From Bacteroidales bacterium (GTDB taxonomy: Bacteria; Bacteroidota; Bacteroidia; Bacteroidales; P3): DNA of 64,000 nucleotides. Shown here one piece after another: positions 5,388-64,000 of this stretch. The notes beneath the pieces are model-generated. The model had not been told where the DNA came from. It saw only the letters and a list, made by a program, of their open reading frames with translations, and did not search any database. Positions within the stretch are counted from its first letter, which is position 1; the number at the start of each line of letters is the position of its first letter. The translations under genes were made by a program, and so were the position numbers. The stretch lies in assembly GCA_017522105.1 (NCBI GenBank), contig JAFXAA010000030.1, forward strand, positions 2,176 to 66,175, written 5' to 3'.

Positions 5388-7487
5388 TTATTGCTGCATG
5401 GTGGCGTAGAAACGGCGCGAGGCCTCCTCCTGGCGCGGCTTGCTGAAGTTGCTCACGCGGCGCAGGTAGCCGATGACGCGCGTCAGGTAGTCAACATTGT
5501 GAGAGTGACACTTGGGGCACTCCTTGAGGTAGCGCTTGTCGATGTGGCCACAGTCGTTGCAAATGGTGTTGGGAATGTTGAAGGTGAAGTAGTTGCATCC
5601 CTCCTTGGCCGCCACGTCGAGCAGCTGGCGGTACTGCTGTTGCGTGAGGTGCTCCTCCAGGTTGCAGTGCAGCGCCGAGCCGCCGGTGAGGTGCTCTATG
5701 TAGGGTGCGCCGTGCAGGCGGAACTTGTCGAGCACCGTCAGCGAGGTGTCCTCCACTATGTAGAAGTAGCTGTTGTAGCAGTCGCGCGGCACGAAGTAGC
5801 CGTCCTCGCGGTCCCACTTGGCATGCTTGACACCCACGTTCTCGGCCGGTATCATCTCGCAGTTGAACATCACCTCCTTTGTGCGGTATTCCTTGTTCTT
5901 CTTCTCCACAAGGCCGAGCACCGTCTGCACGAACTCGCGGTACTGGGGGTTGTCCGTGATGGGGATGCCCATGAACTCGGCGGCTTCCACCAGGCCGTTG
6001 ACGCCTATGGTGAGGTACTGGCGCGCTATGTTGATGTAGCCGGCGTCGAAGAGCGGCAGCATGCCGTGGGCCTGCAGCTCCTTGAGGTTCTCGTTGTAGG
6101 CCAGCTGCACCTTGTGGCAGAGGTCTATGATGTCGGTCAGGAAGACGCGGTAGTCCATGCCGTTGTTGACGGCGTACTGAATGCAGCGGTTGAGGTTGAT
6201 GGTGAGCACGCTCTTGGAACCCGTGCTGACGCCGCCGGCGCCGAGGGTGTAGCTGAAGCCGTTGTCGGTGATTTCGTTGCGCAGGCGGCAGCAGCTGCTG
6301 AGCGAGTCGGCGTTGTCGCTGATGTAGGTGAAGAAGGAATGGCCTTCGGCGTACATCTCGGCCGTGAAGTCGGCCATCTCCTTGTCCACGAACTGGCCAT
6401 CCTTGTCGTAGAGCAGCGCCATGGTCTCCACCGGGAAGGTGAGCACCGTCTTTGTGCGTTCGGCGTTGAACCAGCGCATGAAGCGTTTCTGCAGCCATTT
6501 CAGGCCCTCCCAGTCGGGCTCCGACCCGTCGGGGAAGCGGAACTCGCCGAAGATGCTCTCGAAATAGGGGCGGTCGTAGTAGGCTATGTTCCAGAACACC
6601 GACTGGTAGTTGCGCGCGCCGGTGGGCTGGTTGAGGCTGTAGACGATCTGCTCGAAGCAGTCGGTGACTATCTTGTCCATCGTCTTCTGCCGCAGGCTGA
6701 GGTCCACCACGCGGTCGGGCTCCTTCCAGTAGTCCTTGCCGTAGTCCTTCTGGATGAAGTAGTTGAGGTACATCAGGAACTCCGGCGTGGCGCAGGCGCC
6801 GCTGAGCATGGAGCTCACCATGAAGACCATGTTGATGAAGCCGCCGCAGAACGACTTGAGGTTGCTCGGGGCCGTGGAGTTGCCCCCGATGCTGACCGTG
6901 CCGCCGAGCAGCCACGGGTACATGGTGATGGAGGCGCAGTAGTTGGCCAGGCTCGTCTCGTCGTTCTTGTATATGAAGTGGTGCGTCAGCAGGTCTATGT
7001 AGCGGTCGGCCAGCTCCTTGCCGTACATCTTCTTGATGCGGTCCGTCAGCAGGCGGCGGTTGAGGCGTATGAAGCCGCTCTTCGGCAGCTCGCCGATGAG
7101 GGTGGCGATGTTCTTGTTCTCCACGTTGGCGTTGGCGTCGTACTTGCTGCCCGTGGCGGCGTTGGCGGCGTCCACATAGTCGGCCAGGAACTTCAGCTTC
7201 TCCAGGGTCTCGCGGTCCTCGGTGTGCTGCTGGCGGTAGAGCATGAAGCTCTTGGCCACGCTGTAGAAGCCCTCCTTCATCAGGGCCACCTCCACCTGGT
7301 TCTGTATCTCCTCGACGGTGATGCCGTTGTGGATGTCGAGGTGCGTCAGTATCTTCGACAGCTGCCCAAGGTCTACAGGCTCCTGCACCGAGCCGAAGGC
7401 CTTGACGATGGCATTCATGATTTTGTCAAGCGAGAAGCGTTCCACTTCGCCGCCGCGCTTGGTGATTGAGAGGGTATTGGTTTCCAT
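5388..7487 (-). CDS. nrdD: anaerobic ribonucleoside-triphosphate reductase (class III)
   Basis: C-terminal Zn ribbon CNDCGH...CPKCHS and glycyl-radical motif RVIGYL. The start is chosen at METNTLSITKRGG, 21 codons inside the track ORF. Confidence 0.95.
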   Translation of the reverse strand: METNTLSITKRGGEVERFSLDKIMNAIVKAFGSVQEPVDLGQLSKILTHLDIHNGITVEEIQNQVEVALMKEGFYSVAKSFMLYRQQHTEDRETLEKLKFLADYVDAANAATGSKYDANANVENKNIATLIGELPKSGFIRLNRRLLTDRIKKMYGKELADRYIDLLTHHFIYKNDETSLANYCASITMYPWLLGGTVSIGGNSTAPSNLKSFCGGFINMVFMVSSMLSGACATPEFLMYLNYFIQKDYGKDYWKEPDRVVDLSLRQKTMDKIVTDCFEQIVYSLNQPTGARNYQSVFWNIAYYDRPYFESIFGEFRFPDGSEPDWEGLKWLQKRFMRWFNAERTKTVLTFPVETMALLYDKDGQFVDKEMADFTAEMYAEGHSFFTYISDNADSLSSCCRLRNEITDNGFSYTLGAGGVSTGSKSVLTINLNRCIQYAVNNGMDYRVFLTDIIDLCHKVQLAYNENLKELQAHGMLPLFDAGYINIARQYLTIGVNGLVEAAEFMGIPITDNPQYREFVQTVLGLVEKKNKEYRTKEVMFNCEMIPAENVGVKHAKWDREDGYFVPRDCYNSYFYIVEDTSLTVLDKFRLHGAPYIEHLTGGSALHCNLEEHLTQQQYRQLLDVAAKEGCNYFTFNIPNTICNDCGHIDKRYLKECPKCHSHNVDYLTRVIGYLRRVSNFSKPRQEEASRRFYATMQQ

Positions 7488-7604
7488 ATATTGTGCTTGT
7501 TTTTCTATCCTTACTCCGGTCGCGGACAGGCACTGGCAAAACACGGGCACCGCATGGTGTTGGGTCTGACAAGTGGCTTGTTGCGCGAAAGCGTTGTCTA
7601 CGGC

Positions 7605-7795
7605 CTATGGCAGGTCTCCTGGCTTGCCTCCGCACGCCGCGCCTTCTCGGGGGGCGATATCCCCAATGGCTTCTTGCGGTGGCTCACAATCAGTGCTTTA
7701 CATTAATTGCACTGCACTCGTTGAGGCTCACAGTTGCGCGTCAGTCCGTGATTTTCACACGGTTCCCTATTGTCCGCACCGGGCGGGCCATAGCC
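7605..7795 (-). promoter_or_regulatory. cobalamin (B12) riboswitch in the nrdD leader
   Basis: The minus strand reads AAUAGGGAACCGUGUGAAAAUCACGGACUGACGCGCAACUGUGAG ... GCCAUUGGGG...CCGAGAAGGC ... AAGCCAGGAGACCUGCC (B12 box). Confidence 0.85.
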
Positions 7796-7807
7796 TTTTC
7801 GACGCTG

Positions 7808-7839
7808 CAAAATTACAACCTTTCCCGAAACCTCGCAAA
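7808..7839 (-). promoter_or_regulatory. promoter: TTTG (-33) and TAATTTTG (-7)
   Basis: The plus strand has CAAAATTA at 7808-7815 and CAAA at 7836-7839, a 20-nt spacing. It lies just upstream of the riboswitch. Confidence 0.6.
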
Positions 7840-7920
7840 TTTACTTATCCACACCGACCTGTTGATAATAACCTCCCTTCGGCAGGGTGTCGCCGTCCCT
7901 GCTCTGTTGCCCCGCCCGCC

Positions 7921-8050
7921 CTACGGACTTCCTACGGCTGTTCTACGGTTGTTTAACGGTTGTTCTACGGTTGTTCTACGGTTTAAACCGTTAAACAACC
8001 GTAGAACAACCGTTAAACAACCGTAGAACAGCCGTACAAACTCCGTTGCG
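7921..8050. repeat. family A palindromic element, copy 1 (11-nt CTACGGTTGTT-type units, centre GTTTAAAC)
   Basis: Arms of about 53 nt pair with a single 2-nt mismatch. The 103-bp core 7934-8036 is identical to 18421-18523. Confidence 0.95.
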
Positions 8051-8131
8051 GATGGGGCCAACAGGAGGCGGAAAAAGGGCACGGTGGAAAAAAAAGTGGC
8101 ATTTTTTTTTGCTTTTGTTTCGGGAAATATG

Positions 8132-8139
8132 TATATTTG
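8132..8139 (+). promoter_or_regulatory. -7 box TATATTTG
   Basis: Upstream of pruA (ATG at 8200). Confidence 0.55.
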
Positions 8140-8199
8140 CACTTTGATAAAACACCTCCATACGGCAGGAAAACACAAACAATCAATAAAATAAACACT

Positions 8200-9834
8200 A
8201 TGAACAACAGCATTTTCATGTTTCCCAAGCCCGAGAACGAACCCGTTAAAGGCTATGCTCCCGGCAGCCCTGAAAGAGCGGAAATCCGCAAAGCCCTCGA
8301 CGAACTCTACGCCAAGGTGACCGAAATCCCTGCCATCATCGGCGGCAAGGAGGTCAAGACCAAGAATATGGGCGAAGTGGTGATGCCCACGGAGAACCAC
8401 CACGTGCTGGCCCGCTACCACAAGGTGGGCGAGAAGGAGGTGCAGGCCGCCATAGACGCCGCCATGAAGGCCCGCAAGGAATGGGCCGAGACTCCGTGGA
8501 TAGACCGCGCCAGCGTGATGATGAAGATTGCCACGCTCATCAGCGGCAAGTATCGCTACCTCATCAACGCCGCCACCATGCTCGGCCAGGGCAAGACCAC
8601 CATGCAGGCCGAGATCGACAGCGCCTGCGAGCTGGTGGACTTCCTTCGCTATAATACCTACTATGCCAGCCAGATATACAGCGACCAGCCCTGCTCTGAC
8701 AAGGGCACGCTGAACTATGTGACCTACCGCGCCATGGAGGGCTTCGTGTTCGCCATCACGCCGTTCAACTTCACCTCCATCGCCTCCAACCTCTGCCTCA
8801 GCCCCGTGCTGATGGGCAACGTGTGCATCTGGAAGCCCTCGACAACGGCCCTGCTCTCCAACTATATATTAATGAAGATATACAAGGAGGCAGGCCTGCC
8901 CGACGGCGTGGTGAACTTCCTGCCCGGCAGCGGCGCGCTTATTGGCAAGGTGGCCTTCGCCGACGAGAACCTCGCCGGCGTCCACTTCACCGGCTCCACC
9001 GCCACCTTCAAGGGCTTCTGGAAGGCCATCGGCCAGAACATCGACATCTACAAGACCTACCCGAAGATTGTCGGCGAGACGGGCGGCAAGGACTTCATCA
9101 TGGTGCACCGCAGCGCCGACCCCGACCAGGTGGCCACGGCCATCGTCCGCGGCGCCTTCGAGTTCCAGGGCCAGAAGTGCTCCGCCGCAAGCCGCGCCTA
9201 TGTGCCCAAGAGCATGTGGCCCAAGGTGGAGAAGACCGTGGGCAAGATGCTCAAGGAGATCAAGATGGGCGACGTGCGCGACTTCAGTGCCTTCGTCAAC
9301 GCCGTCATCGACGAGGCCTCCTTCGACAACTGCAAGCGCTACATCGATCACGCCAAGAAGAGCAAGGACGCCGAGATAGTCTTCGGCGGCAAGTGCGACA
9401 AGAAGAAGGGCTGGTTCGTGGAGCCCACCGTCATCCTGGCCAAGAAGCCTGACTACAAGAGCATGTGCGAGGAGATCTTCGGACCCATCATCACCATCTT
9501 CGTCTACGACGACAAGGACTATGAGAAGACCTGCCAGCTGTGTGACACCACGTCGCCCTACGCCCTGACGGGTGCCATCTTCGCCACCGACCGCAAAGCC
9601 CTTCGCGCCGGCTACGACCTGCTGAAGAATGCCGCGGGCAACATATACTTCAACGACAAGCCCACGGGTGCTGTCGTCGGCCAGCAGCCCTTCGGTGGCG
9701 CCCGCGCCAGCGGCACCAACGACAAGGCAGGCTCCTACCTCAACCTGCTGCGTTGGGTGAGCCCGCAGGCCGTCAAGGAGACCTTCGACCCCGCCAGCGA
9801 CTACAAGTACCCCTTCATCAGCAGCGCCAAGTGA
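8200..9834 (+). CDS. pruA: L-glutamate gamma-semialdehyde (1-pyrroline-5-carboxylate) dehydrogenase, aldehyde dehydrogenase family
   Basis: ALDH motifs HFTGSTATFKG, IVGETGGKDF and the catalytic Cys in GQKCSAASR. The start is placed at MNNSIFMFPKPENEP. Confidence 0.85.
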   Translation: MNNSIFMFPKPENEPVKGYAPGSPERAEIRKALDELYAKVTEIPAIIGGKEVKTKNMGEVVMPTENHHVLARYHKVGEKEVQAAIDAAMKARKEWAETPWIDRASVMMKIATLISGKYRYLINAATMLGQGKTTMQAEIDSACELVDFLRYNTYYASQIYSDQPCSDKGTLNYVTYRAMEGFVFAITPFNFTSIASNLCLSPVLMGNVCIWKPSTTALLSNYILMKIYKEAGLPDGVVNFLPGSGALIGKVAFADENLAGVHFTGSTATFKGFWKAIGQNIDIYKTYPKIVGETGGKDFIMVHRSADPDQVATAIVRGAFEFQGQKCSAASRAYVPKSMWPKVEKTVGKMLKEIKMGDVRDFSAFVNAVIDEASFDNCKRYIDHAKKSKDAEIVFGGKCDKKKGWFVEPTVILAKKPDYKSMCEEIFGPIITIFVYDDKDYEKTCQLCDTTSPYALTGAIFATDRKALRAGYDLLKNAAGNIYFNDKPTGAVVGQQPFGGARASGTNDKAGSYLNLLRWVSPQAVKETFDPASDYKYPFISSAK

Positions 9835-12575: not shown

Positions 12576-13880
12576 TTATTCTTGATAGTGACAATTGAAA
12601 CGGCGTTCGTATTCTTCCGCCAGCTGGGGGCGGAAGTCGGGGTGTGCTATGCGGATAAGGTCTTCGGCTCGGTGTTGCAGGGTGCGGCCTTTGAGGCGGG
12701 CAATGCCGTATTCGGTGACGATATAGTCCACGTCGTTGCGCGAGGTGCTGACGGCAGCTCCTGGCGTGAGGAAAGGCTTGATGCGCGAGATGCTCCCGCC
12801 CGCTGCCGTGCTAGGCATGGCGATGATGGCTTTGCCCTCACGTGCAAGTGATGCACCGCGTATGAAGTCAACTTGTCCTCCGATGCCGCTGTATTGGCGC
12901 ATGCCGATGGTTTCGCTGGACACCTGTCCCTGCAGGTCGACCTCGAGGCATGAATTGATGGATATCATGCGGTCGTTCTTGGCAATGATGAGTGGGCTGT
13001 TGACGTAATCAACAGGGTAGAATTCCACATCGGGGTTTTCATCGACGAAGTCGTACAACTCTCGCGGCCCCATGATGAAGGTTACCACAGCCTTGCCACG
13101 ATGCAGCGTCTTGCGGCTGCCGTTGATGACACCCTTGCGCATCAAGTCCATCACTCCGCTGGAGAACATCTCGCTGTGTATGCCGAGGTCGTTTTTCTCT
13201 GTCAGCGACTGCAGCACAGCGTCTGGTATTCCGCCGATGCCTAGCTGCAGCGTCGATCCGTCTGCCACCAGCGAGGCACAGTGGCGTCCGATAGCCATCT
13301 CCACCTCGCCCGGCGAGGGCAAGCGGAGCTCCTGCAGTTGATAAGCGCAGGGGATGATATGGTCTATCTGCGACACATGTATCAGCGTGTCACCATAGGT
13401 GAAAGGCATCATCTCGTTGGTCTCTACGATGACGGTCTTGGCTGCATGGATGGCTGCTTTGGCGTAATCGCAACTCACCCCGAGCGAACAGTAGCCTTCG
13501 GCATTGGGTGGTGTGGCTTGGAAGACAGCCACATCGCATGGGATGTCGTTGCCAATCATCGACGGAACATCTTTGAAGTAGGCAGGGAAAAAGTCACCCT
13601 CCCTGCGTTCTATCACCTCGCGCGAATTTGCCGAGAGGAAGTTGCTCACATGACGGAAGTGACCGAAACAACGCGGCTTGTAGCATGGGTTGTCACCCAG
13701 CGTGGTCATGTGGAAGATGAGCACGTCGTTATAGTCTTCGCAGTGGTCGGCCAATGCCTGCTGTATCAGCCTCGGTGCTGCCGCAGCGTGACCCATCACC
13801 ACACATTGTCCGTCGTGTATGTCTTTGATTGCCTCAAGGGGCTTGCTTACTTTCTTTTTGTAGTCTTCTTTCCAGTTCAT
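12576..13880 (-). CDS. acetyl-CoA hydrolase/transferase family protein (4-hydroxybutyrate CoA-transferase-like)
   Basis: 434 aa, with family-typical segments (GSTLQLGIGGIPDAV, INSCLEVDLQGQVSSE, GIGGQVDF). It is the first gene after the riboswitch. Confidence 0.85.
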   Translation of the reverse strand: MNWKEDYKKKVSKPLEAIKDIHDGQCVVMGHAAAAPRLIQQALADHCEDYNDVLIFHMTTLGDNPCYKPRCFGHFRHVSNFLSANSREVIERREGDFFPAYFKDVPSMIGNDIPCDVAVFQATPPNAEGYCSLGVSCDYAKAAIHAAKTVIVETNEMMPFTYGDTLIHVSQIDHIIPCAYQLQELRLPSPGEVEMAIGRHCASLVADGSTLQLGIGGIPDAVLQSLTEKNDLGIHSEMFSSGVMDLMRKGVINGSRKTLHRGKAVVTFIMGPRELYDFVDENPDVEFYPVDYVNSPLIIAKNDRMISINSCLEVDLQGQVSSETIGMRQYSGIGGQVDFIRGASLAREGKAIIAMPSTAAGGSISRIKPFLTPGAAVSTSRNDVDYIVTEYGIARLKGRTLQHRAEDLIRIAHPDFRPQLAEEYERRFNCHYQE

Positions 13881-14035
13881 AGTATGATAAGTTTATTTTT
13901 TTTTCGCATCGTCGTAGTCGGCAATGCGAACAGTTATATAGTTGCAATAGGGTAGGGCGGGGTGGGCGACAGCCATATGTCGCAGCCTCCAACAAGTGCC
14001 TTATAGACGCGAAAGCATTGCCGAAAAAATCGTAC

Positions 14036-14195
14036 AGGGCAGGTCTCCTGGCTTATCCCTCAAGGCCGAAGTCTTCTCGGAGACGCTTGTCTCCAATGAC
14101 GTTTGTTTTTCTGCCCATCAGCGGTGAATTACAGTTGCGCGACAGCTCATGATTTGCACATGATTCCCTCTTGGCAGCCCCATTACAAGGCTGAC
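14036..14195 (-). promoter_or_regulatory. cobalamin (B12) riboswitch
   Basis: The minus strand reads AAGAGGGAAUCAUGUGCAAAUCAUGAGCUGUCGCGCAACUGUAAU ... GUCAUUGGAGAC...CCGAGAAGAC ... UAAGCCAGGAGACCUGCC. Confidence 0.85.
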
Positions 14196-14268
14196 TCGGT
14201 CGATGTTATTATTTCAAAGTGCTGAATAATTGCCGTCTTGCGAAAGACCGTCTCTCAAAATGGCGATG

Positions 14269-14655: not shown

Positions 14656-15402
14656 TCAGGCATCTTCCATGCCGCCACAGACGGGCAGGACGACGCTGGT
14701 GATGTAGGGGCACATGTCGCTGGCCAGGAAGACGCAGGCCTGTGCCACCTCGTCCACGGTGCCGGGGCGTTTCATAGGTATGCGGCTGCACCAGGTGTCC
14801 ATGAGCTCCTTGGGTATGTCGGCCGTCATCTCGGTCTGCACGAATCCCGGGGCCACCACGTTGACGCGTATGTTGCGTGCGGCGAACTCCTTGGCGCAGC
14901 TCTTGCTGAAGCCTATGATGGCGGCTTTGGAGGCTGCGTAGTTGGCCTGGTTGTAGTTGCCGGCGATGCCCACCACCGAACCCATGTTTACTATGGAGCC
15001 GTGTCCCTGGCGCCACATGGCGGGCTGTATGGCCTTGGTCATGCAGAAGACGCTCTTGAGGTTGGTGTGCATCACGCGGTCGAACTGCTCCTCTGTCATG
15101 CGCTTCACGGCGCTGTCGTCGGTGATGCCGGCGTTGTTGACGAGTATGTCCACTTTGCCGAAGTCGGCGAGGACGTCCTTCACAAATGCCTGAGCCTGTT
15201 CATACTCTGCCACATCGGCGGCGTAGCCTTTGGCTTTCACGCCGAGGGCGGAGAGCTCCTGCTCCACGGCAATCATCTTATCGTTGCGTGTGCGTCCGCA
15301 GAAAGCCACATCGCAGCCCTCCTTAGCGAACCGCACGGCTATGGCGTGACCGATGCCGCGTGTGGCACCGGTGACTATGGCGGTCTTGTTCTGAAGTATC
15401 AT
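14656..15402 (-). CDS. fabG: 3-oxoacyl-[ACP] reductase (SDR)
   Basis: TGATRGIG cofactor motif, the catalytic YAASK, and a FabG-like length of 248 aa. Confidence 0.85.
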   Translation of the reverse strand: MILQNKTAIVTGATRGIGHAIAVRFAKEGCDVAFCGRTRNDKMIAVEQELSALGVKAKGYAADVAEYEQAQAFVKDVLADFGKVDILVNNAGITDDSAVKRMTEEQFDRVMHTNLKSVFCMTKAIQPAMWRQGHGSIVNMGSVVGIAGNYNQANYAASKAAIIGFSKSCAKEFAARNIRVNVVAPGFVQTEMTADIPKELMDTWCSRIPMKRPGTVDEVAQACVFLASDMCPYITSVVLPVCGGMEDA

Positions 15403-15458
15403 CTATGAAATAAAAAAAGCCTCACTCCAATGCCGGAGTGAGGCTTTGTGGTTAATGA

Positions 15459-16487
<1,029 letters not shown>

Positions 16488-16519
16488 TTATATTAAACTT
16501 TTGTTGATTGATTGTTTTA

Positions 16520-16527
16520 CAAAAGTA
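16520..16527 (-). promoter_or_regulatory. -7 box TACTTTTG (gap)
   Basis: The plus strand reads CAAAAGTA, 53 nt upstream of the gap ATG. Confidence 0.5.
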
Positions 16528-16569
16528 TTAAACATTTTCGACATGTGCAAACCTTTTTTAATATTTTCG

Positions 16570-16577
16570 TATCTTTG
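16570..16577 (+). promoter_or_regulatory. -7 box TATCTTTG (mtgA)
   Basis: Lies 10 nt before the ATG at 16588. Confidence 0.55.
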
Positions 16578-16587
16578 CACTCCGGCA

Positions 16588-17436
16588 ATGGCAAAAGAGA
16601 AACGACATAAAACATTGAAGGCCAAAGGGCAGAAGCATAAAGGAGGCCTCAAGCCGTGGGGCGCATTGAGCTTCGTGGGCAAGGTGTGGCGCGTGCTGTG
16701 GCTGACCGTCGTCACCCTGTGGCTCGTCACCGTGCTGCAGGTGCTCCTCGGCTGGTTCATCAACCCTCCGCTCACCCCCCTCATGGTGCAGCGCTTCTTC
16801 CAGCAGGTGGGCGACGGGGAGCGCGCAGTGCGCTTCGAGCGCGACTATGTGCCACTGGACAGCATCAGCAACAACCTGATTACCGCCGTTGTGTATGCCG
16901 AAGACGGTCTCTTCATGTATCACCATGGCTTCGACGTCAAGCAGCTCAAGGCCGCCTACCGCGAAAACAAGAGCGGCCGCCGCTTCCGCGGCGGGAGCAC
17001 CATCAGCAACCAGACGGCCAAAAACGCCTTCCTGCCGCACTCGCGCACCATGGCGCGCAAGGCCTTCGAGGCCTACTATACGGTTATGATAGAGGCCGTT
17101 TGGGGCAAGCGGCGCATCATGGAGGTGTACCTCAACATTATAGAGTTCGGCGACGGCATCTACGGCGCCGAGGCTGCCGCGCAGCACTACTTCGGCCACT
17201 CGGCCCGCCGTCTCACGCAGACAGAGGCCGCCCAGCTTGCTGCAACCCTGCCGGCACCCCTCAAGCGCAACCCCGCACACCAGACACCCTTCTTCCGCAA
17301 GCAGACCCAGCGCATCAAGGAACGCTTTAAGTGGGGTGCTGTAAACATTGATTTACCGATGGAAGAGCGCCGTGGTAGATACAAGGACCGCGAGACTCTG
17401 CTGGAGTTCTACCTATGGACGAAACGACAGAAATAG
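16588..17436 (+). CDS. mtgA: monofunctional peptidoglycan glycosyltransferase
   Basis: GT51 motifs AEDGLFMYHHGFD and RGGSTISNQTAKN. The start is placed at MAKEKRHK; the longer track ORF runs antisense into gap. Confidence 0.85.
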   Translation: MAKEKRHKTLKAKGQKHKGGLKPWGALSFVGKVWRVLWLTVVTLWLVTVLQVLLGWFINPPLTPLMVQRFFQQVGDGERAVRFERDYVPLDSISNNLITAVVYAEDGLFMYHHGFDVKQLKAAYRENKSGRRFRGGSTISNQTAKNAFLPHSRTMARKAFEAYYTVMIEAVWGKRRIMEVYLNIIEFGDGIYGAEAAAQHYFGHSARRLTQTEAAQLAATLPAPLKRNPAHQTPFFRKQTQRIKERFKWGAVNIDLPMEERRGRYKDRETLLEFYLWTKRQK

Positions 17437-18341
17437 AACGCACGTGGATGCGCTACCGGCGCGACTACGAAGCCTACCTTAAGCTTGAGCGCGGCATGGC
17501 CGACAACAGCGTGAAAGCATACATGCAGGACTTTACCCACATGCAGCAGTTCATGTGCGAGCAAGGCATTGCGCCAGAGCAAGTAGCACATGCCGACCTA
17601 CAGTGTTTGTTGAAGCAGTTGTGCGACCTTGGCATTGCCCCGGCATCGCAACGTCGTATGATTGCCGGCTGGCGCATGTTCTTCCACATGCTCGTAGTGG
17701 AGGACGTGCTCAAGGACAGCCCCGCCGCCCTCCTCGACCTGCCCATCAAGCCCAAGCACCTGCCCGATGTGCTCACCGACGACGAGGTCACGGCCATACA
17801 GGATACCTTTGACCGCAGCATCCCCGAAGGCGAGCGCAACTACGTGATTGTGGAGGTGTTGTACGGTTGCGGCCTGCGTGTGTCCGAGCTCGTCAACCTC
17901 AAACTCTCCAACATATACGTCGAAGAGCAGTACCTGCAGGTGATAGGCAAAGGCGACAAGGAACGGTGGGTGCCGATCAACGAACACGCCCTCAGGCTCT
18001 TGCTTGACTACATACACCTTGTGCGCAGCCATCAGGAGCCAACGCCAGGCGAGGAGAAGATAGTCTTCCTCAACCGCCGCGGGCACCGCCTGACGCGCCA
18101 GATGGTGTTCATCATGCTGCGCGACGCCGTTGCCAAGGCTGGCATAAAGAAAAAGGTGAGCCCCCATTCGCTGCGCCACAGCTTCGCCACCGAACTTGTG
18201 GAGAACGGGGCCGACCTCCGCTCTGTGCAGGAGATGCTTGGCCATGAAAGCATCAGCACCACAGAGATTTACACCCACCTCACCCGCGACACCCTGCGCA
18301 ACACCATCGCCGCCTACCACCCCCATTACGCCAAGCATTGA
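17415..18341 (+). CDS. xerD: site-specific tyrosine recombinase XerD
   Basis: Core-binding N-terminus plus HSLRHSFATELVENGADLRSVQEMLGHESISTTEIYTH. It overlaps the mtgA end by 22 nt. Confidence 0.85.
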   Translation: MDETTEIERTWMRYRRDYEAYLKLERGMADNSVKAYMQDFTHMQQFMCEQGIAPEQVAHADLQCLLKQLCDLGIAPASQRRMIAGWRMFFHMLVVEDVLKDSPAALLDLPIKPKHLPDVLTDDEVTAIQDTFDRSIPEGERNYVIVEVLYGCGLRVSELVNLKLSNIYVEEQYLQVIGKGDKERWVPINEHALRLLLDYIHLVRSHQEPTPGEEKIVFLNRRGHRLTRQMVFIMLRDAVAKAGIKKKVSPHSLRHSFATELVENGADLRSVQEMLGHESISTTEIYTHLTRDTLRNTIAAYHPHYAKH

Positions 18342-18418
18342 CGCCTCCGCCACCCCGTCGGCATGACCTGCGGCATGCCCCTCCGCTCCCTTTTTTGTCC
18401 CCATCCTCACCGGCCCCG

Positions 18419-18536
18419 GTACGGCTGTTCTACGGTTGTTTAACGGTTGTTCTACGGTTGTTCTACGGTTTAAACCGTTAAACAACCGTAGAACAACCGT
18501 TAAACAACCGTAGAACAGCCGTAGGGACTCCGTAGA
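18419..18536. repeat. family A palindromic element, copy 2
   Basis: 18421-18523 is identical to 7934-8036. The right terminus GCCGTAGGGACTCCGTAG is complete and the left terminus is truncated. Confidence 0.95.
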
Positions 18537-18652
18537 GGGGCCGCGGGGGGCATGGAGGGTTGCCGGTGCGATGGAGTGTTGGTGGAGGTGTTGAATGTCA
18601 GATGATTGGTGCAAAATCGGCATTTTTTTACTGTAATATGGAAAAATAATTA

Positions 18653-18660
18653 TAATTTTG
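18653..18660 (+). promoter_or_regulatory. -7 box TAATTTTG (rex)
   Basis: Lies 27 nt before the ATG at 18687. Confidence 0.55.
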
Positions 18661-18686
18661 CACTCTGTAAAAACGGTGCACCGGAT

Positions 18687-19382
18687 ATGAAAGACAAGCA
18701 CAACTCACTGGTTATTTTGAAGTCCACGCTCAGCCGCCTGCCGTCCTACTATTGTTTTGTGGAGGAGCGCAAGGCCGCTGGCGAGGAGTATGTCTCGTCG
18801 GTTGCCATGGCAGAGAGCCTTGGCATCAATCCTGTACTTGTGCGCAAGGATTTGGCGAGCATCAGCAGGGAGCCCGGGCGTCCCAAGGTTGGATTCAGGG
18901 TGGAGACCCTGCTGGCTGACATGAAGAAGTACCTCGGCTACGACCACTATGACGAGGCGGTGCTTGTCGGGGTCGGTGCCCTGGGCCACGTGCTGCTGCA
19001 GTACGGCGGCTTTGCCAACTACGGCCTCGGCATTGTGGCGGGGTTCGACAAGGAGCCGTGTTCGGCCACGGTCGGCGGGCGCCCTGTGCTGCCGGTCGAG
19101 AAGCTGGTGTCGTTCCTTCGCCGCACACATATAGGTATAGGTATTATAGCCGTGCCTGCGCGCGAGGCGCAGAAGGTGGCGCAGATGTTGATTGACGGTG
19201 GCGTGCGTGCCATCTGGAATTTCGCACCGACGACCCTTGAGCTGCCGCGTGAGATACTGGTGAAGAACGAGAACCTGGCGGCGTCGCTCGCCGCTCTGAC
19301 CACCGAGCTGCGCCGCCGCATTGGCGGCGGCGGGGTGGATGAACCGCCCGCGGTGGATAAAAAAACGATAAAAAAGTATTGA
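18687..19382 (+). CDS. rex: redox-sensing transcriptional repressor Rex
   Basis: Winged-helix N-terminus (LSRLPSYYCFVEE...VSSVAMAESLGINPVLVRKDLA) and a Rossmann motif VGVGALGHVLL. Confidence 0.85.
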   Translation: MKDKHNSLVILKSTLSRLPSYYCFVEERKAAGEEYVSSVAMAESLGINPVLVRKDLASISREPGRPKVGFRVETLLADMKKYLGYDHYDEAVLVGVGALGHVLLQYGGFANYGLGIVAGFDKEPCSATVGGRPVLPVEKLVSFLRRTHIGIGIIAVPAREAQKVAQMLIDGGVRAIWNFAPTTLELPREILVKNENLAASLAALTTELRRRIGGGGVDEPPAVDKKTIKKY

Positions 19383-19399
19383 TTTTTGAAATAAAGTTG

Positions 19400-19407
19400 T
19401 ATATTTG
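19400..19407 (+). promoter_or_regulatory. -7 box TATATTTG (hydrogenase cluster)
   Basis: Followed by an ~85-nt leader before the ATG at 19496. Confidence 0.5.
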
Positions 19408-19495
19408 CATCGCAAAACAGGGAAGCGAGAATGGTGGAGGAGTCGGATTGACAGCCTGTTAGATGAAAATTGACAACAATAAAAATCAATAAAAA

Positions 19496-19795
19496 ATGAC
19501 GATAAAGGTTTGTGTCGGCAGTTCATGCCACCTGAAAGGATCATACGATGTGATTGAGGCCTTCACCGAGGTGCTCAAGAAATACGATGTTGAGGATGTA
19601 GTGGAGCTGCAGGCGAGCTTTTGCCTCGGCCACTGCGCCAAGGGTGTGAATGTGGCCTGCGAGGGCGTCGTTCCCGCCGCCCACGGTTCCCAGGTGGAGG
19701 AGACCCCCGAGGGATTCATACTGCACAACGTCAGCGCCGGCAATGTGGAAGAGTTGTTTGCCAGCGAGATATATCCCAAACTGAACCTGAATTAG
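19496..19795 (+). CDS. thioredoxin-like [2Fe-2S] ferredoxin domain protein
   Basis: Cys pattern CVGSSCHLKG ... CLGHCAKG, typical of NuoE/HymA-like 2Fe-2S modules. Confidence 0.7.
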   Translation: MTIKVCVGSSCHLKGSYDVIEAFTEVLKKYDVEDVVELQASFCLGHCAKGVNVACEGVVPAAHGSQVEETPEGFILHNVSAGNVEELFASEIYPKLNLN

Positions 19796-19884
19796 GACTA
19801 CATGCGGTCGTGTGTGTGTCCCGCGGCAAATGCCGCAGGGCGGGTTTGCGATTGCTCCACTATATAATATATTAAGGAAAAACC

Positions 19885-21639
19885 ATGTCAGAATATCTTG
19901 AATTCCGGACGGTGCAGTGCAAGGACTGCTACCGTTGCCTGCGCGAGTGTCCTGTGAAGGCAATAAACATCAAGGATCACCACGCTCAAATATTGGAAGA
20001 CCACTGCATACTGTGCGGCCATTGCACGAAGGTGTGCCCCCAGAAGGCCAAAATAGAGCACAGCGAGCTGCCCGTGGTGCGCGAGTTGCTGCGCAGCGGA
20101 GCCCGCGTGGCGGCCACGGTGGCGCCGTCGTTCATCAGCAGCCTCGGGCAGGAGGACTTTTCGGAGCTGCGCATAGCGCTGGCCAAGCTTGGCTTCGCCG
20201 TGGCCGAGGAGACTGCTGTGGGCGCGCAGGCTGTGGTGGAGGAATACAAACGGGTGCTAAAAACGGGAGAGATGAGGAACTTCATAACCTCTGCTTGTCC
20301 GGCGGCGTGCCGCCTTATCCAAATGTACTACCCCAAAGCTCTCCCGTACCTTGCCCCCGTTGACTCGCCCATGGTGGCGCACGCCAAGATGCTGCGCAAG
20401 GGCGATCCCGGACTGAAGGTGGTTTTCATCGGGCCCTGCATAGCCAAGAAGCGCGAGGCCGACGAGCATGGCATAGACGCCGTGCTCACTTTCGACGAGC
20501 TGCTGACCCTCTTCCGTGAGAGCGGCATCGACCTGGCGAACATCAACAAGCTGGCTGTGGGTTCCGACAACGGTTGCGCCAACCGTGCCAAGGCATTCCC
20601 TGCCACACAGGGCATCATCCGTTCGTTCGACGCGTTGCCCGAGGGCTACCGCTACCTTGCTGTGGACGGGGTGGACCGCCTGGCCGGGGTGCTGGAGAAC
20701 ATTGAGAGCCTGGACCATGTGTTCATTGAGATGAATGTGTGCCCCGGAGGCTGCATCAACGGCCCTTGTGCCATAGAGAACGAAGGGGGCTTGATGAAGG
20801 CCGAGGCCGACATCGACGCTTATGTGGAGCGCGAGATGGCCACGCGCAAGCACGCTCCCGCTCCCGACGCCGGGGTGTCGTTGGCCTATGCCTACCCGCG
20901 GCTGCGCGCCAAGAGCCGTCCGGCCACGGAGAAAGAGATAGAGGATGTGCTGCACCGCACCGGCAAGTTTTCGCCTGCCGACGAGTTGAACTGCGGTGCT
21001 TGCGGCTACAGCACGTGCCGCGAGAAGGCTTGGGCTGTGGTCAACGGCTATGCCGACATAGACATCTGCCTGCCATATATGCGCAAGCGAGCCGAGAGCC
21101 TTGCTGTGGACATAGTGCGCAACTCGCCCGAAGGCGTGGTGCTGGTGGACTCGGACATGAATATTGTGGACATCAACGCCTCGGCCATGAAGATGCTTGG
21201 CCTTGGCGGCACACCGGAGAGCGTGCAGGGGCACCCCATGGCGGAGAACTTCCAGCCAATAGATTTCTACAATGCCTACACGAAGAAATGCCGCACAGAG
21301 AACCCGTGCATCCACATCGCTGCCACCGACCGCTATGTGAGCCTCACGGTGAGCAACCTCAGCGAACAGAATCTGTTGTTTGGCCTTATGAAGGACATTT
21401 CGGAGCAGGTCAACTATGAGAAGAAGCTCGACAAGGTGAAGGCGGACACCATAGCCACCACCGACAACCTAATCATGAAGCAGATGCGTGTGGTGCAGGA
21501 GGTGGCGTCCCTTCTCGGCGAGACCACGGCGGAGACCAAGGTGGCCCTGATGAACCTGAAGAACATGCTTGCCGACGGCCATTCGGACCTGCGCTCCGAC
21601 GGGCGGCCAACAGATTGGAAGACAGCGAAAAAGGAGTGA
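19885..21639 (+). CDS. sensory [FeFe]-hydrogenase-like protein with C-terminal PAS domain (HydS-type, group C)
   Basis: Two 4Fe-4S motifs at the N-terminus. H-cluster motifs are TSACP (Ala in place of the proton-relay Cys), GPCIAKKRE and MNVCPGGCINGP. There is an extra 4-Cys motif, CGACGYSTC...C, then a PAS-like segment. Confidence 0.85.
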   Translation: MSEYLEFRTVQCKDCYRCLRECPVKAINIKDHHAQILEDHCILCGHCTKVCPQKAKIEHSELPVVRELLRSGARVAATVAPSFISSLGQEDFSELRIALAKLGFAVAEETAVGAQAVVEEYKRVLKTGEMRNFITSACPAACRLIQMYYPKALPYLAPVDSPMVAHAKMLRKGDPGLKVVFIGPCIAKKREADEHGIDAVLTFDELLTLFRESGIDLANINKLAVGSDNGCANRAKAFPATQGIIRSFDALPEGYRYLAVDGVDRLAGVLENIESLDHVFIEMNVCPGGCINGPCAIENEGGLMKAEADIDAYVEREMATRKHAPAPDAGVSLAYAYPRLRAKSRPATEKEIEDVLHRTGKFSPADELNCGACGYSTCREKAWAVVNGYADIDICLPYMRKRAESLAVDIVRNSPEGVVLVDSDMNIVDINASAMKMLGLGGTPESVQGHPMAENFQPIDFYNAYTKKCRTENPCIHIAATDRYVSLTVSNLSEQNLLFGLMKDISEQVNYEKKLDKVKADTIATTDNLIMKQMRVVQEVASLLGETTAETKVALMNLKNMLADGHSDLRSDGRPTDWKTAKKE

Positions 21640-36066: not shown

Positions 36067-36186
36067 CATCTTTCCTACCATCTGCAACTTCCATGCCAAA
36101 AGTTGTTATCAACATCCCCGTGTCAATACCACCGTCCGCCGTTGTACGCGGCTCCACTTTCTCCTGCCTCCCCATGCATCCTCACC

Positions 36187-36311
36187 GGAGTCCCTACGGC
36201 ATTTCTTCAGTAGTTCTTCAGTAGTTCTTCAGTAGTATTTCAGTGTTTGACTGAAGAACTACTGAAGAACTACTGAAGAACTACTGAAGAAATGCCGTAC
36301 CGGCTCCGTAC
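36187..36311. repeat. family B palindromic element, copy 1 (11-nt TTCTTCAGTAG units)
   Basis: GGAGTCCCTACGGCATT-(TCTTCAGTAGT)x3...loop TTTCAGTGTTTGAC...(CTACTGAAGAA)x3-ATGCCGTACCGGCTCCGTAC. Confidence 0.95.
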
Positions 36312-42075: not shown

Positions 42076-42185
42076 CTACGGAGTCCCTACGGCCGTTCTT
42101 CAGTAGTTCTTCAGTAGTTCTTCAGTCAAACACTGAAGAACTACTGAAGAACTACTGAAGAACGGCCGTAGGGGCTCCGTACCGG
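42076..42185. repeat. family B palindromic element, copy 2 (inverted loop orientation)
   Basis: CTACGGAGTCCCTACGGCCG-(TTCTTCAGTAG)x2-TTCTTCAGT-caaac-ACTGAAGAA-(CTACTGAAGAA)x2-CGGCCGTAGGGGCTCCGTACCGG. Confidence 0.95.
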
Positions 42186-42385
42186 ATGCGGTGGAGAGAG
42201 TGTGTGTATGGAACCCTAATAGGGTTATGATATGTTTGGTTGTATGTTGCTGACTATTAAAACGAAACCCATACGGGGTATTGGTGTGGCTGATGGGCGG
42301 AGGGGCGGCTGTCAATGGATGGTGCCTGTGCGGTATTGCGGCCGAAGGTGGATAAAAAAAGAGCTGTTGGAACGGAAAAAAATCG

Positions 42386-44912: not shown

Positions 44913-44961
44913 CAAGCGGAAAGAGAGACAAGGATTGCAGGCTGAAGCCTGTGTATCATAC

Positions 44962-45067
44962 GGTTGGGCAAGTCTTATACGACCAGCTCCCATTGAATCC
45001 CCCAGGGTAGGAATACAGCAAGGGTGTTTGGTTGTAGCGGTGCGATATAAACAGCTTGCCCTTTTTT
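44962..45067 (+). ncRNA. ffs: signal recognition particle RNA (small bacterial SRP / 4.5S type)
   Basis: Helix-8 signature at 45004-45020: AGG-GUA-GGAA-UAC-AGCA, i.e. a GGAA tetraloop flanked by the symmetric-loop AGG/AGCA. The closing helix is GGGCAAG (44966-72) / CTTGCCC (45055-61), followed by T6. A promoter lies upstream. The 5' boundary is uncertain. Confidence 0.65.
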
Positions 45068-51225: not shown

Positions 51226-51257
51226 ATATTTTTGACATTCCTTCCCTGCGTATCCCC

Positions 51258-51388
51258 CACGGAGCCCCTACGGCATTTCTTCAGTAGTTCTTCAGTAGTT
51301 CTTCAGTAGTATTTCGGTGTTTGACTGAAGAACTACTGAAGAACTACTGAAGAACTACTGAAGAAATGCCGTAGGGGCTCCGTAGGGG
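51258..51388. repeat. family B palindromic element, copy 3
   Basis: The core differs from copy 1 by one substitution (TTTCGGTG vs TTTCAGTG). The 17-nt termini ACGGAGCCCCTACGGCA / TGCCGTAGGGGCTCCGT are perfectly complementary. Confidence 0.95.
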
Positions 51389-51479
51389 ATTGGGGGCAGA
51401 ACTGTGGAATGTAGGCGGTGTCGAAATGTTAAATTTTAGGAAAATTCACCGTCGGGCTTGTCGTGTTGGGGAAATTTCG

Positions 51480-60947: not shown

Positions 60948-61754
60948 ATGGAATGGTTTGAAGCTCTTATCCTTGGCATCATCCAAGGCCTAACAGAATA
61001 CCTGCCGGTCAGCTCCAGCGGTCATCTGGCCATAGGCGCCAACCTCTTCGGCCTCAGCGGAGAAGAGAACCTCACCTTCACCGTTGCCGTCCATGTGGCC
61101 ACCGTGCTCAGCACCATCGTCATCCTTTGGCGTGAGATAGTGTGGCTTATCACTGACCTGTTCAAGTTCCGCTGGAACGAAGGCACCAAGTACATCGTCA
61201 ACATTATCATCTCCATGATACCTGTTGGCATCGTCGGTCTCTTCTTTAAGGACAAGGTGGAAGCTATTTTCGGCAGCGGACTCCTCGTGGTGGGCATCTG
61301 CCTGCTGGTCACTGCCACGCTGCTGGCCTTTAGCTACTGGGCCAAACCGCGCCAGCGTGAGACTATCTCGCCCCTGCACGCCTTCATCATCGGCCTTGCA
61401 CAGGCCCTCGCCGTGCTCCCCGGCCTCTCGCGCTCCGGCAGCACCATAGCCACTGGGCTTCTGCTGGGCAACAAGAAAGAGCGTCTCGCGCAGTTTTCAT
61501 TCCTCATGGTCATCCCCCCGATCCTCGGCGAAGCGCTGCTCGACGTCAAGGACATAGCCGAGATGGGCGTCAGCCAGGCAATGGCCGGCCTGCCGCCACT
61601 CTCACTCCTCGTGGGCTTCCTCGCCGCCTTCGTCTGCGGATGCATAGCATGCAAGTGGATGATCAACATCGTCAAGCGCGGCAAACTCATCTGGTTCGCT
61701 CTCTACTGCGCCATCGTCGGCACACTGACCATCGTCCTCCCCTACGTCCTCTGA
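60948..61754 (+). CDS. uppP: undecaprenyl-diphosphate phosphatase
   Basis: BacA motif [14 protein letters not shown] and [10 protein letters not shown]. Confidence 0.9.
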
Positions 61755-62647
61755 TGGTAACTGTAGAGCAGCTGCAGGCAGGCATCGTCCTCCCCATCGA
61801 CAAACCGCGGCAGTGGACCTCCTTCCAAGCCGTCAACAAGATAAAGGCCGTGGTGCGCAACACCTACGGCCAACGCGACGCAAGCGGCGCGAAGGCCGGC
61901 CCCAATGGCGGCCTTAAGAAATTCAAGATAGGCCATGCCGGCACCCTCGACCCCTTGGCTACAGGCCTCCTCCTCGTATGCCTCGGCAAGGCCACCAAGA
62001 CCATCCCAACCCTGCAGGACGGCGACAAGGTGTACACCGGCACCATGGTGCTTGGCGCCACAACGCCATGCTACGACCTTGAGCGCCCCATAGACCGCTA
62101 CTACCCCTACGAGCACATCACTCCCGAGCTCCTGCAGCAGACGCTGCCGCAGTTCACAGGCACCATCATGCAGGTGCCGCCAATGTTCAGCGCCGTGAAA
62201 ATCAGCGGCCAGAGGGCTTACGAGTATGCACGCCTCGACGACCCCACAGTCACCATCCAACCCAAGCCCGTCAACATCTACAGCTTCGAGATTACGGACT
62301 TCCGCCCGGGGAATGAAGAATCTGAATGTGTTAATGCGTCAATGCGTGAATGCGTTAGTACTGACGCGTCAGCCACTAACGCATTAACACATTCACACAA
62401 TAACACATTAAAAAAAGCCCACCATCTCTACGACAACCCGCTCGGCACCGTCCCCGCACACCTTCCGCAGGCCGACTTCCGCATCCATTGCGGCAAGGGC
62501 ACCTACATCCGCTCCCTCGCCCGCGACCTCGGTCTCGCCCTCGGCAGCGGCGCCTTCCTCTCGGCCCTCCGCCGCGAGCAGATAGGCTCCTACAACGTCG
62601 CCGACGCCCTCCGCCTCGACGAGGTGGAAGCCTACCTCACCAAATAA
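61754..62647 (+). CDS. truB: tRNA pseudouridine(55) synthase, carrying an in-frame palindromic insertion
   Basis: Catalytic motif GHAGTLDPLATG and the CGKGTYIRSLARDLG segment. The start is placed at MVTVEQL, overlapping the uppP stop (TGATG). Confidence 0.9.
   Translation: MVTVEQLQAGIVLPIDKPRQWTSFQAVNKIKAVVRNTYGQRDASGAKAGPNGGLKKFKIGHAGTLDPLATGLLLVCLGKATKTIPTLQDGDKVYTGTMVLGATTPCYDLERPIDRYYPYEHITPELLQQTLPQFTGTIMQVPPMFSAVKISGQRAYEYARLDDPTVTIQPKPVNIYSFEITDFRPGNEESECVNASMRECVSTDASATNALTHSHNNTLKKAHHLYDNPLGTVPAHLPQADFRIHCGKGTYIRSLARDLGLALGSGAFLSALRREQIGSYNVADALRLDEVEAYLTK
62311..62417. repeat. word-repeat palindromic element inside the truB coding sequence
   Basis: GAATGTGTTAATGCGT(CAATGCGTGAATGCGT)TAGTA-CTGACGCGTCAG-CCACTAACGCATTAACACATTC. 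It is locally AT-rich and has no stop codon in the truB frame. Confidence 0.8.
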
Positions 62648-62802: not shown

Positions 62803-64000
62803 TTACCTTATCACCACCACCTTGCGGGCGGGATAGGCGCCAATCTTAATCATATAGGTACCACTGACGGGTGCGTCGAAGTATAGTGGAGTGTAGTCGT
62901 CCTGCTTGGTGGCTAAAATACGCCCGTTCACGTCATAGAGCGTCACTCTGTTGCCGTCGGCGCCTTCCACGACTATCTGGCCTTGACTTGAATACACTTT
63001 GGCATTCAGTGCTTCGACGCCATTGATGGCTTCATGGGTTATATAAACCGTGTCGTGAATGATGACGGTGTCGTGCAGCCAGATGGTATCAAATTGCGTC
63101 AACCACAACGTGTCTGTAAGCGTCAACGTGTCGTATATGTAATTGTCTATGGTGTCATAAACGGTGTTGGTGATAGTGTCAAATTGTGTCACCGTCAGTG
63201 TGTCAACCACTATTGTCGTATCATGTACAGCGTAGGGCACGTCTATGTAGGTGGTGTCGTGTACTTCAATGTAAGTAGTGTCATGTACGGCATACGGTAT
63301 ATCGATGTAGGTGGTGTCGTGTACTTCAATGTAAGTAGTGTCATGTACGGCATACGGCACATCTATGTAGGTGGTGTCATGTACGTCTATGTAAGTGGTG
63401 TCATGTACGGCATACGGCACATCTATGTAGGTGGTGTCGTGTACGTCTATATATGTGGTGTCATGCACAGCGTATGGTATGTAGGTAGTATCATGCACAT
63501 TGATGTAGGTGGTGTCGTGTACGTCTATATATGTGGTGTCATGCACAGCGTATGGTATGTAGGTAGTATCATGCACATCGATGTAGGTGGTGTCGTGTAC
63601 ATCAACGTTAATAGTGTCATATAGCACCACTGTGTCTTGCCAAGGTTCGCCGTCGGCGACAAAGAAGGCTGTCAATGATAAATCCTGCAATACAGCAAAA
63701 GTGTAGGGGTTGTATGTAGATCCATTGCTCCAATGTGTGAAACTGTAACCGCTATATGGTGTTGCAGAAACTGTAATTGGTTGCCCATACTCTCTATTAC
63801 CGGCACCGCTGACTGAGCCGTGAGCCAAATTGTCGACTTGAACGTCAACTGCATGGACATCAATAGCGAAATAGGCAGTATATATTTTGTTGTCATCGAA
63901 CACAAAACGACGTGGATTTTCGGTATTGCCGTCATTCCATTGAATGAAGTGGTAGTGGGGTATTGGGATTGCAAAAATCAGTGACGTACTGTTGAGGTAC
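62803..64000 (-). CDS. T9SS type-A cargo protein with Listeria-Bacteroides-type repeats and an HDTTYI tandem-repeat stalk (5' end outside the window)
   Basis: The frame stays open upstream of the track start (a GTG at 63903) to the window edge (...HYHFIQWNDNGNTENPRRF...). C-terminus KVYSSQGQIVVEG...YDVNGRILA...GTYMIKI. Confidence 0.8.
   Translation of the reverse strand, partial: YLNSTSLIFAIPIPHYHFIQWNDGNTENPRRFVFDDNKIYTAYFAIDVHAVDVQVDNLAHGSVSGAGNREYGQPITVSATPYSGYSFTHWSNGSTYNPYTFAVLQDLSLTAFFVADGEPWQDTVVLYDTINVDVHDTTYIDVHDTTYIPYAVHDTTYIDVHDTTYINVHDTTYIPYAVHDTTYIDVHDTTYIDVPYAVHDTTYIDVHDTTYIDVPYAVHDTTYIEVHDTTYIDIPYAVHDTTYIEVHDTTYIDVPYAVHDTTIVVDTLTVTQFDTITNTVYDTIDNYIYDTLTLTDTLWLTQFDTIWLHDTVIIHDTVYITHEAINGVEALNAKVYSSQGQIVVEGADGNRVTLYDVNGRILATKQDDYTPLYFDAPVSGTYMIKIGAYPARKVVVIR
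63205..63612 (-). repeat. coding tandem repeat: 14 HDTT(Y/I)I units organised as near-identical 60-nt double units
   Basis: For example, 63241-63300 and 63301-63360 differ at only about 4 positions. The encoded unit is VHDTTYI(D/E)VHDTTYIDVPYA. Confidence 0.9.

Follow-up and report, generated by a model that had tools for sequence, protein, structure and literature searches.

What kind of element is the long palindrome that separates the divergently transcribed nrdD and pruA genes in the 64-kb stretch of Bacteroidales DNA analysed here (hereafter the window)? A preliminary description, made from the letters of the sequence, presented this element, called E1 below, as an array of phased 11-nt units that might be bound by a protein or serve as a cruciform-prone insulator. 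The comparisons reported here show that it belongs to an apparently undescribed family of palindromes in uncultured gut and rumen Bacteroidales, whose members keep their sites and change their inner sequence.

The nrdD/pruA palindrome and its surroundings

According to a repeat finder, E1 is a palindrome at 7923-8046 whose two arms (7923-7984 and 7985-8046) are 62 nt each, 92% complementary and separated by a spacer of 0 nt (Table 1). In the inner arms (7933-7984 and 7985-8036, 52 nt), 50 of the 52 positions are paired, and the single mismatch, of 2 nt (7976-7977 facing 7992-7993), lies 8-9 nt off the axis; the same asymmetry of the stem recurs in E2, another copy in the window. Tandem Repeats Finder assigns the arms a period of 11, with 4.7 and 5.0 copies, and the alternation of AACCGTAGAAC and AACCGTTAAAC in the right arm creates a 22-nt super-period. 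When folded as single-stranded DNA, E1 reaches -64.8 kcal/mol, against -20.5 +/- 2.6 for shuffled sequences (z = -17), and phased TACGG-N6-TACGG is observed 12 times in the window versus 0.03 expected by chance. E1 is non-coding. The preliminary description had said as much, and its reading of 7921-8050 as a phased 11-nt palindrome is borne out.

The source organism is a close relative of the 'uncultured Bacteroidales bacterium RUG061', with proteins mostly 86-100% identical and orthologous DNA 86-98% identical. Bacteroidetes promoters have a TAnnTTTG -7 consensus, and boxes of this type are predicted on both sides of E1, about 100 nt (nrdD) and about 82 nt (pruA) from its edges. The pruA box is kept in alignments with RUG061 and with L187, a contig from another relative. 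As had been proposed, E1 is located upstream of both nrdD and pruA and of both predicted divergent promoters, not at a gene 3' end. Nor is it a canonical terminator, in agreement with the initial opinion: it has no T-tract, and a terminator scan of 7550-8250 returned no terminator-like site.

Other features of the window include a second cobalamin riboswitch (14021-14214, minus strand), which precedes an acetyl-CoA hydrolase/transferase gene (12576-13880), and a Bacteroidales small SRP RNA gene at 44959-45065 on the plus strand (Rfam RF04183, 113 bits). Tandem repeats of 60, 24, and 78 nt occur at 63221-63603, inside a minus-strand ORF (62803-63903) with a Flg_new_2 / InlB B-repeat domain, which probably encodes a repeat-containing surface protein.

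Table 1. Palindromic elements of the window and features flanking E1 and E2 (window coordinates)
Feature	Position	Strand	Remarks
nrdD	5388-7550	minus	
Cobalamin riboswitch ahead of nrdD	7592-7807	minus	Rfam
nrdD leader -7 box TAATTTTG	7808-7815	minus	predicted from the TAnnTTTG consensus; directly upstream of the riboswitch
E1, whole (family A)	7912-8056		takes in degenerate G+C-rich outer units
E1 left outer TACGG-type unit	7921-7932		orthologous to RUG061 outer units at the same site
E1 left arm	7923-7984	plus	phased 11-nt units CTACGGTTGTT, one variant TAACGGTTGTT
E1 104-bp core TACGGCTGTTC...GAACAGCCGTA	7933-8036		100% identity to 18420-18523
E1 centre GTTTAAAC	7981-7988		A+T-rich, palindromic
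E1 right arm	7985-8046	plus	reverse complement of the left arm
E1 right outer unit CAAACTCCGTTGCG	8037-8050		degenerate CCGTA-type layer
pruA -7 box TATATTTG	8132-8139	plus	predicted; TTTG (-33) at 8108-8111
pruA-type aldehyde dehydrogenase gene	8200-9834	plus	
E2 (family A)	18405-18538		between the 3' end of a xerC/D-like gene (17415-18341, plus) and a rex-like promoter
rex-like gene beside E2	18687-19382	plus	
E3 (family B, unit CTTCAGTAGTT, loop GTGTTTGAC)	36186-36308		clpB (minus) / argS (plus)
E4 (family B, opposite orientation, loop GTCAAACAC)	42077-42181		324-aa gene (minus) / priA (plus)
E5 (family B)	51252-51390		formiminotransferase-cyclodeaminase gene (minus) / T9SS-signal protein gene (plus)

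A superfamily of layered palindromes and its genomic placement

Five palindromes made of 11-mers (E1 to E5) are found in the 64 kb of the window. The E2 core (18420-18523) is 100% identical to the 104-bp core of E1, and this identity ends precisely at the TACGG / CCGTA boundaries. The unit of family B matches that of family A at 8 of 11 positions, the same G+C-rich outer units (TACGGAG(T/C)CCC) are shared, and the ends, TACGGCnnTTCT, are common to families A to F. The 'Family A' of the preliminary description is thus real, but it is one sub-family of a larger superfamily.

With the PruA protein as a query, E1 was recovered in identical form from two other metagenome assemblies of different samples (L060 and L061), and is thus not unique to a single assembly, a concern raised at the outset; a Logan contig stops at the E1 edge, as a repeat would cause. 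When species-representative genomes were queried with the end motif common to the families, the 35 matches listed comprised at least 27 copies in RUG061 and 3 in RUG377, where a third unit, CTACGGTATTT, is found. Copy number and taxonomic range are both minimum values, and there are probably many more copies than the dozens retrieved. A metagenome scan with a family-A 20-mer gave about 8 true A-like loci among 120 rows. Most of the 120 rows were set aside as an unrelated, eukaryote-like repeat that starts with (CTACGGTTGTT)n and forms no palindrome. This non-palindromic, high-copy element of about 130 bp, in which (CTACGGTTGTT)n is followed by CTTATAGGTTTCACCTGTCCGGCGATAACAGTCG..., is found among L063-L182, mostly on contigs Ga0115005 and Ga0209712, and these contigs are marine-looking and microsatellite-rich; the repeat looks eukaryotic and the 11-mer that it shares with E1 is probably a coincidence.

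All copies follow a common plan. In the core, a short, usually A+T-rich centre is flanked by two arrays of 11-nt units, each with 2-5 units in tandem and the one inverted relative to the other; the core is bounded by TACGGCnnTTCT and its complement, and enclosed by G+C-rich TACGG-N6 units whose conservation falls outward. Across 73 arms, the TACGGC core boundary is sharply conserved and the outer TACGG units fade over about 3 units into C-rich DNA. The structure is layered: the outer TACGG-N6 units, such as the left outer unit of E1, are the older layer and the core is young. The number of units varies from 2 to 5 per arm and is frequently unequal between the two arms of one copy, and some hybrid arms mix unit types (L041, L053). 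Whichever of the six unit types is used, one arm is the exact reverse complement of the other, and every type contains a (G/T)TT(C/G)T pentamer. Most families have an A+T-rich centre and a G+C-rich outer stem; the centre of RUG061 family B is G+C-rich.

Units of other lengths were also encountered. An 85-bp palindrome at 62325-62409 of the window, with 8-nt units AATGCGTN and 35-nt arms that are 86% complementary, lies within the truB frame (61640-62647), between the TruB_N and TruB_C_2 domains, and leaves this frame intact; at its position, RUG061 has a shorter, unrelated sequence. A palindrome of tandem 7-nt units (GTTTAAG) is present between two co-directional genes in L189 (11508-11596). 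Palindromes of short tandem units are therefore not confined to period 11, and the geometry of one unit per helical turn, emphasised in the preliminary description, is not universal.

The genomic placement of the elements is strongly biased. Gene contexts were determined with a simple codon-usage gene caller trained on Pfam-validated genes, at loci that were ascertained via the element itself. In the window, 4 elements are in divergent spacers, 1 is in a tandem spacer and none is in a convergent one, which corresponds to occupancies of 4/6, 1/30, and 0/7, respectively (Fisher p = 6e-4 for 4/6 vs 1/37). The figures are 18, 4, and 1 for the RUG061 and RUG377 elements among the matches listed, the convergent one having been recognised by eye, and 5, 2, and 0 for the A-like elements of other metagenome contigs. 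Once orthologous duplicates are removed, about 24 of the 32 distinct sites among the matches listed are divergent, 7 tandem and 1 convergent, when the expected divergent share is 15% of gene pairs and at most 35% of intergenic bases (p <= 5e-6); a genome-wide lack of positional bias, which had been put forward as grounds for losing interest in the element, is not what these sites show. The nearest putative outward-facing -7 box is 80-200 nt away from the palindrome centre, a range that led us to drop the idea of a fixed promoter spacing; strict saturation of divergent spacers was dropped as well, because some compact ones are unoccupied. The sites are upstream of Bacteroidetes-type -33/-7 motifs, and most copies are upstream of both putative flanking promoters, and probably in untranscribed spacer DNA. 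Their neighbours are unrelated housekeeping genes: nrdD, pruA, clpB, argS, priA, a formiminotransferase-cyclodeaminase gene, rex, and a xer-like gene. Of note, a small hairpin (ATGGAACCC-N4-GGGTTC) is found 25-40 nt past the element edge upstream of priA (42207-42228) as well as in L034, L045, L050, L052, and L055.

Probable core replacement and comparison with known repeats

Within the synteny shared by the window and RUG061, all three element sites are occupied in both genomes (E1/L040, E2/L032, and E5/L042), and new insertions therefore look rare. The cores are near-identical within one genome but different at the same site in related genomes. In the nrdD/pruA spacer, the window has a family-A core, RUG061 a family-B one and L187 (PruA 96% identical, nrdD adjacent) a family-D one, the last as a 150-bp palindrome of unit GTTCTTATATT; likewise, the xerC/rex spacer (E2/L032) holds family A in the window and B in RUG061. 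At both E1 and E2, the outermost units and the promoters can still be aligned between the window and RUG061. The E5 ortholog is of family B too, but with a loop of the RUG061 type, family-B loops being GTGTTTGAC or its complement in the window and GTGCNGCAC-like in RUG061 among the matches listed. The family also changes within two further pairs of orthologous sites, L059 and L049 being of family B and their respective counterparts, L158 and L155, A-like. Families A and B coexist in one genome, and family-B units are identical across species that are about 12% apart in nucleotide sequence.

Variation upstream of pruA extends to other relatives: the unit is GTACGGTATTT in L189 (PruA 93% identical), units GTTCTTCGGTT and GTTCTTCTCAC make up a pair of small palindromes in L183 (PruA 95% identical), and in relatives whose PruA is 85-92% identical the element is absent and the spacer is compact, at about 130-200 nt. 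The left neighbour of pruA also varies among relatives, and in every case the element lies at the junction. At E2, nucleotide identity to RUG061 L032 is 91% on the left (14656-18329) and 98% on the right (18490-21470). The elements may mark recombination or rearrangement boundaries, to judge from such alignments.

Fixed sites, swapped cores, genome-specific variants and older outer layers, when considered together, argue for concerted evolution via core replacement. The identical cores at unlinked loci rule out an independent origin in place, and the generation of the palindromes in situ through slippage alone was rejected on this basis. Replacement could occur by gene conversion between dispersed copies, for which the shared ends would provide homology, or through a putative hairpin-recognising enzyme that would re-target existing elements; replication slippage could explain the variable number of units per arm. 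We therefore favour, with a probability of roughly 0.55, the view that E1 belongs to a superfamily of interspersed palindromic repeats of 105-190 bp that are lineage-specific, non-coding and non-autonomous and that undergo core replacement. Our best reading of these repeats is that they are REPIN/MITE-like, and confined or targeted to negatively supercoiled promoter spacers.

Searches for an already named family gave no match, which agrees with the statement in the preliminary description that no Bacteroidales repeat with this layout was known. Rfam has nothing at E1, and a further Rfam search returned only miRNA-precursor models, at 21-55 bits for thresholds of 60-100; BLAST against plasmids and phages found no match, and no account of such an element family was found in a literature search. 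A scan of IMG/VR with the shared end motif produced 24 matches, all in coding sequence and palindrome-free, that were attributed to chance. As for genes that could mobilise the elements, the search for HUH/Y motifs found nothing credible in ORFs of the window and of the RUG061/RUG377 loci L025-L059 (about 10% of a genome), Y1_Tnp is absent from the Pfam annotation of window genes (the element-flanking ones and most others) and of loci L183-L189, and neither the window nor the screened RUG061/RUG377 loci revealed a transposase, a RAYT, or any other candidate for mobilisation. The element ends show neither sharp termini nor a target-site duplication, their conservation fading over about 3 outer units; CGGCCG was considered as a candidate duplication and rejected, since it is valid for CCG-type ends and fails for CAT and CTG ends (2 of the 3 variants).

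The nearest known kinds are the REP/REPIN-RAYT systems and bacterial MITEs, most of whose defining features are not seen here. Like REPs and REPINs (PMC6006769; PMC3116915), the elements are short, non-coding, high-copy intergenic repeats that form long hairpins, with within-genome populations around a master sequence, persistence at orthologous sites and an asymmetric stem mismatch. REPs are defined by an imperfect palindrome of 20-40 nt with a 5' GT[AG]G foot, which the elements lack: GTAG occurs solely within CCGTAG stem units, in a 5' CTAC ... GTAG 3' arrangement, i.e., inside the stem and in the reverse order. In addition, a REPIN combines two self-palindromic REPs, whereas the E1 arms are direct arrays of 11-mers that are not self-palindromic; REPs favour 3' ends, in contrast to the preference for divergent promoter spacers observed here; the swapping of cores of different families at fixed sites is a further difference, and the DNA examined (about 10% of a genome) yielded no RAYT gene. 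A lead is offered by Quentin et al. (2018, PMC6006769), who mention 'atypical secondary structures' in the surroundings of Bacteroidetes RAYT genes of subclass 2.6.

Bacterial MITEs, such as the Correia/NEMIS elements of Neisseria and BrickBuilt, resemble the elements in that they are small intergenic repeats, are non-autonomous and carry inverted ends. In Correia elements, these ends are 26 bp long and come with a TA duplication and an IHF site. BrickBuilt, from Porphyromonas gingivalis, itself a member of the Bacteroidales, is located near promoters and includes a minisatellite whose copy number varies, but this minisatellite is a non-palindromic, 23-nt direct repeat (PMC4596501). Unlike MITEs, the elements have no discrete termini and no target-site duplication, and a related IS was not seen in the DNA examined.

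Two other systems offer partial parallels. ParR binds the 11-bp iterons of parC in plasmid R1, and PhoB/PhoP bind the direct-repeat units of PHO boxes. Such arrays share with the elements one unit per helical turn next to promoters, and a conserved pentamer with a variable spacer. They are, however, single-locus direct repeats tied to a specific operon, whereas the elements are dozens of dispersed inverted arrays whose unit changes between genomes; and while the 11-nt phasing of the ParR-parC type is found here, genes for a binding protein beside the array are not, with no par-like gene among the element neighbours. Insertion sequences IS1397 and ISKpn1, for their part, insert specifically into the loops of REP palindromes. 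They provide a precedent for mobile DNA aimed at the centre of a palindrome, leading to layered, site-stable structures, even though they are full IS with a transposase and old cores are here replaced rather than kept around the new ones.

Possible roles between divergent promoters

In the twin-supercoiled-domain model, transcription generates negative supercoiling, with divergent spacers far ahead of tandem ones, themselves ahead of convergent ones. The placement of the elements follows this order. Negative supercoiling would favour extrusion of the palindromes as cruciforms or hairpins and could thereby bias their insertion or retention toward divergent spacers. The same ranking would equally be expected if a 60-bp hairpin could be accommodated solely in DNA that escapes transcription. 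Selection for a host function could also lie behind the frequent occupation of divergent spacers and the conservation of identical family-B units across species.

Carried further, this last idea makes the elements host-beneficial cruciforms, which would absorb about one supercoil per 10.5 bp extruded and insulate divergent promoters from each other, their shape being selected over their sequence. Several observations are consistent with this possibility: the placement bias follows the twin-supercoiled-domain expectation, palindromy has been retained through six unit sequences at the same kind of site, the centres are A+T-rich and the outer stems G+C-rich in most families, sites persist across species, and the hairpin in DNA is very stable (-64.8 kcal/mol). 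A cruciform with a supercoil-sink or insulator role is thus plausible. Nevertheless, close relatives are element-free with spacers of about 130-200 nt, so that any such role must be dispensable, and the same genomes contain unoccupied divergent spacers; the spacing relative to the -7 boxes is loose (80-200 nt), the family-B centre of RUG061 is G+C-rich, and a copying process would still be needed to place identical cores at unrelated loci. We consider host-beneficial insulation to be an unlikely explanation overall. A still bolder proposal, which we regard as somewhat more doubtful, is that the elements form an unrecognised class of Bacteroidales genome architecture, made of cruciform supercoil sinks or insulators located between most divergent promoter pairs, which a dedicated trans-acting system would keep palindromic and whose cores it would rewrite again and again; such a system, if it exists, would account for sites that remain fixed while their 11-mers change genome by genome.

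Could the elements instead be arrays of operators, in which a sequence-specific protein would bind sites on one helix face, in two inverted sets, for the purpose of co-regulation or nucleoid organisation? OmpR/PhoB-type regulators do bind 11-bp direct repeats, and the strict 11-nt phasing, the retention of TACGG in outer units while the 6-nt spacers vary, the (G/T)TT(C/G)T pentamer of all unit types and the proximity of promoters all go in this direction. The fixed protein-binding array of the preliminary description draws support from this phasing, but is weakened by the fact that the 11-mers differ at the same site between close relatives. Moreover, two families are present in one genome, the flanking housekeeping genes are functionally unrelated, palindromes with 7-nt and 8-nt units exist, and no candidate protein emerged. 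On the comparative sequence data, an operator array of fixed sequence specificity is accordingly less likely, and we see little chance that operator function explains the elements, although the shared pentamer and the retained TACGG keep a co-evolving binding protein conceivable.

An action at the RNA level, with the palindrome working as a bidirectional terminator or insulator, as the precursor of a small RNA or as an RNase III substrate, is very improbable. A very stable hairpin could form from either strand, E2 starts 64 nt past a stop codon and, in RUG061, a copy is found after truB between convergent genes. Yet most copies are upstream of both promoters and so probably untranscribed, there is no T-tract and no terminator-like match, ordinary intrinsic terminators are present elsewhere in the window (I20, I22), and the Rfam matches are solely generic miRNA-precursor hairpins below threshold. 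Lastly, the notion of an assembly or sequencing artefact, suggested by the metagenomic origin of the assemblies and by the one Logan contig that terminates at the E1 edge, can practically be dismissed in view of the identical E1 in two further assemblies from different samples, the occurrence of family members in differently labelled projects (RUG, ENA scaffolds, k141 contigs, NCBI WGS) and the synteny conserved on both sides of the element.

Much is known about interspersed palindromic repeats in Proteobacteria but very little has been published on those of Bacteroidales, and we have not found a description of the combination seen in this superfamily, namely arms of tandem units the size of a helical turn, occupancy of most divergent spacers that bear promoters, onion-like layering and replacement of the core by that of another family at the same site in sister genomes. 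In practical terms, the elements break short-read assemblies and may mark synteny and recombination boundaries in rumen and gut MAGs. If their placement bias reflects negative supercoiling, they would constitute a natural system for the study of cruciform extrusion and promoter coupling in vivo; if it is rather the work of a targeting enzyme, these bacteria would harbour a new activity, recombination or transposition directed by hairpins, that is still to be discovered.
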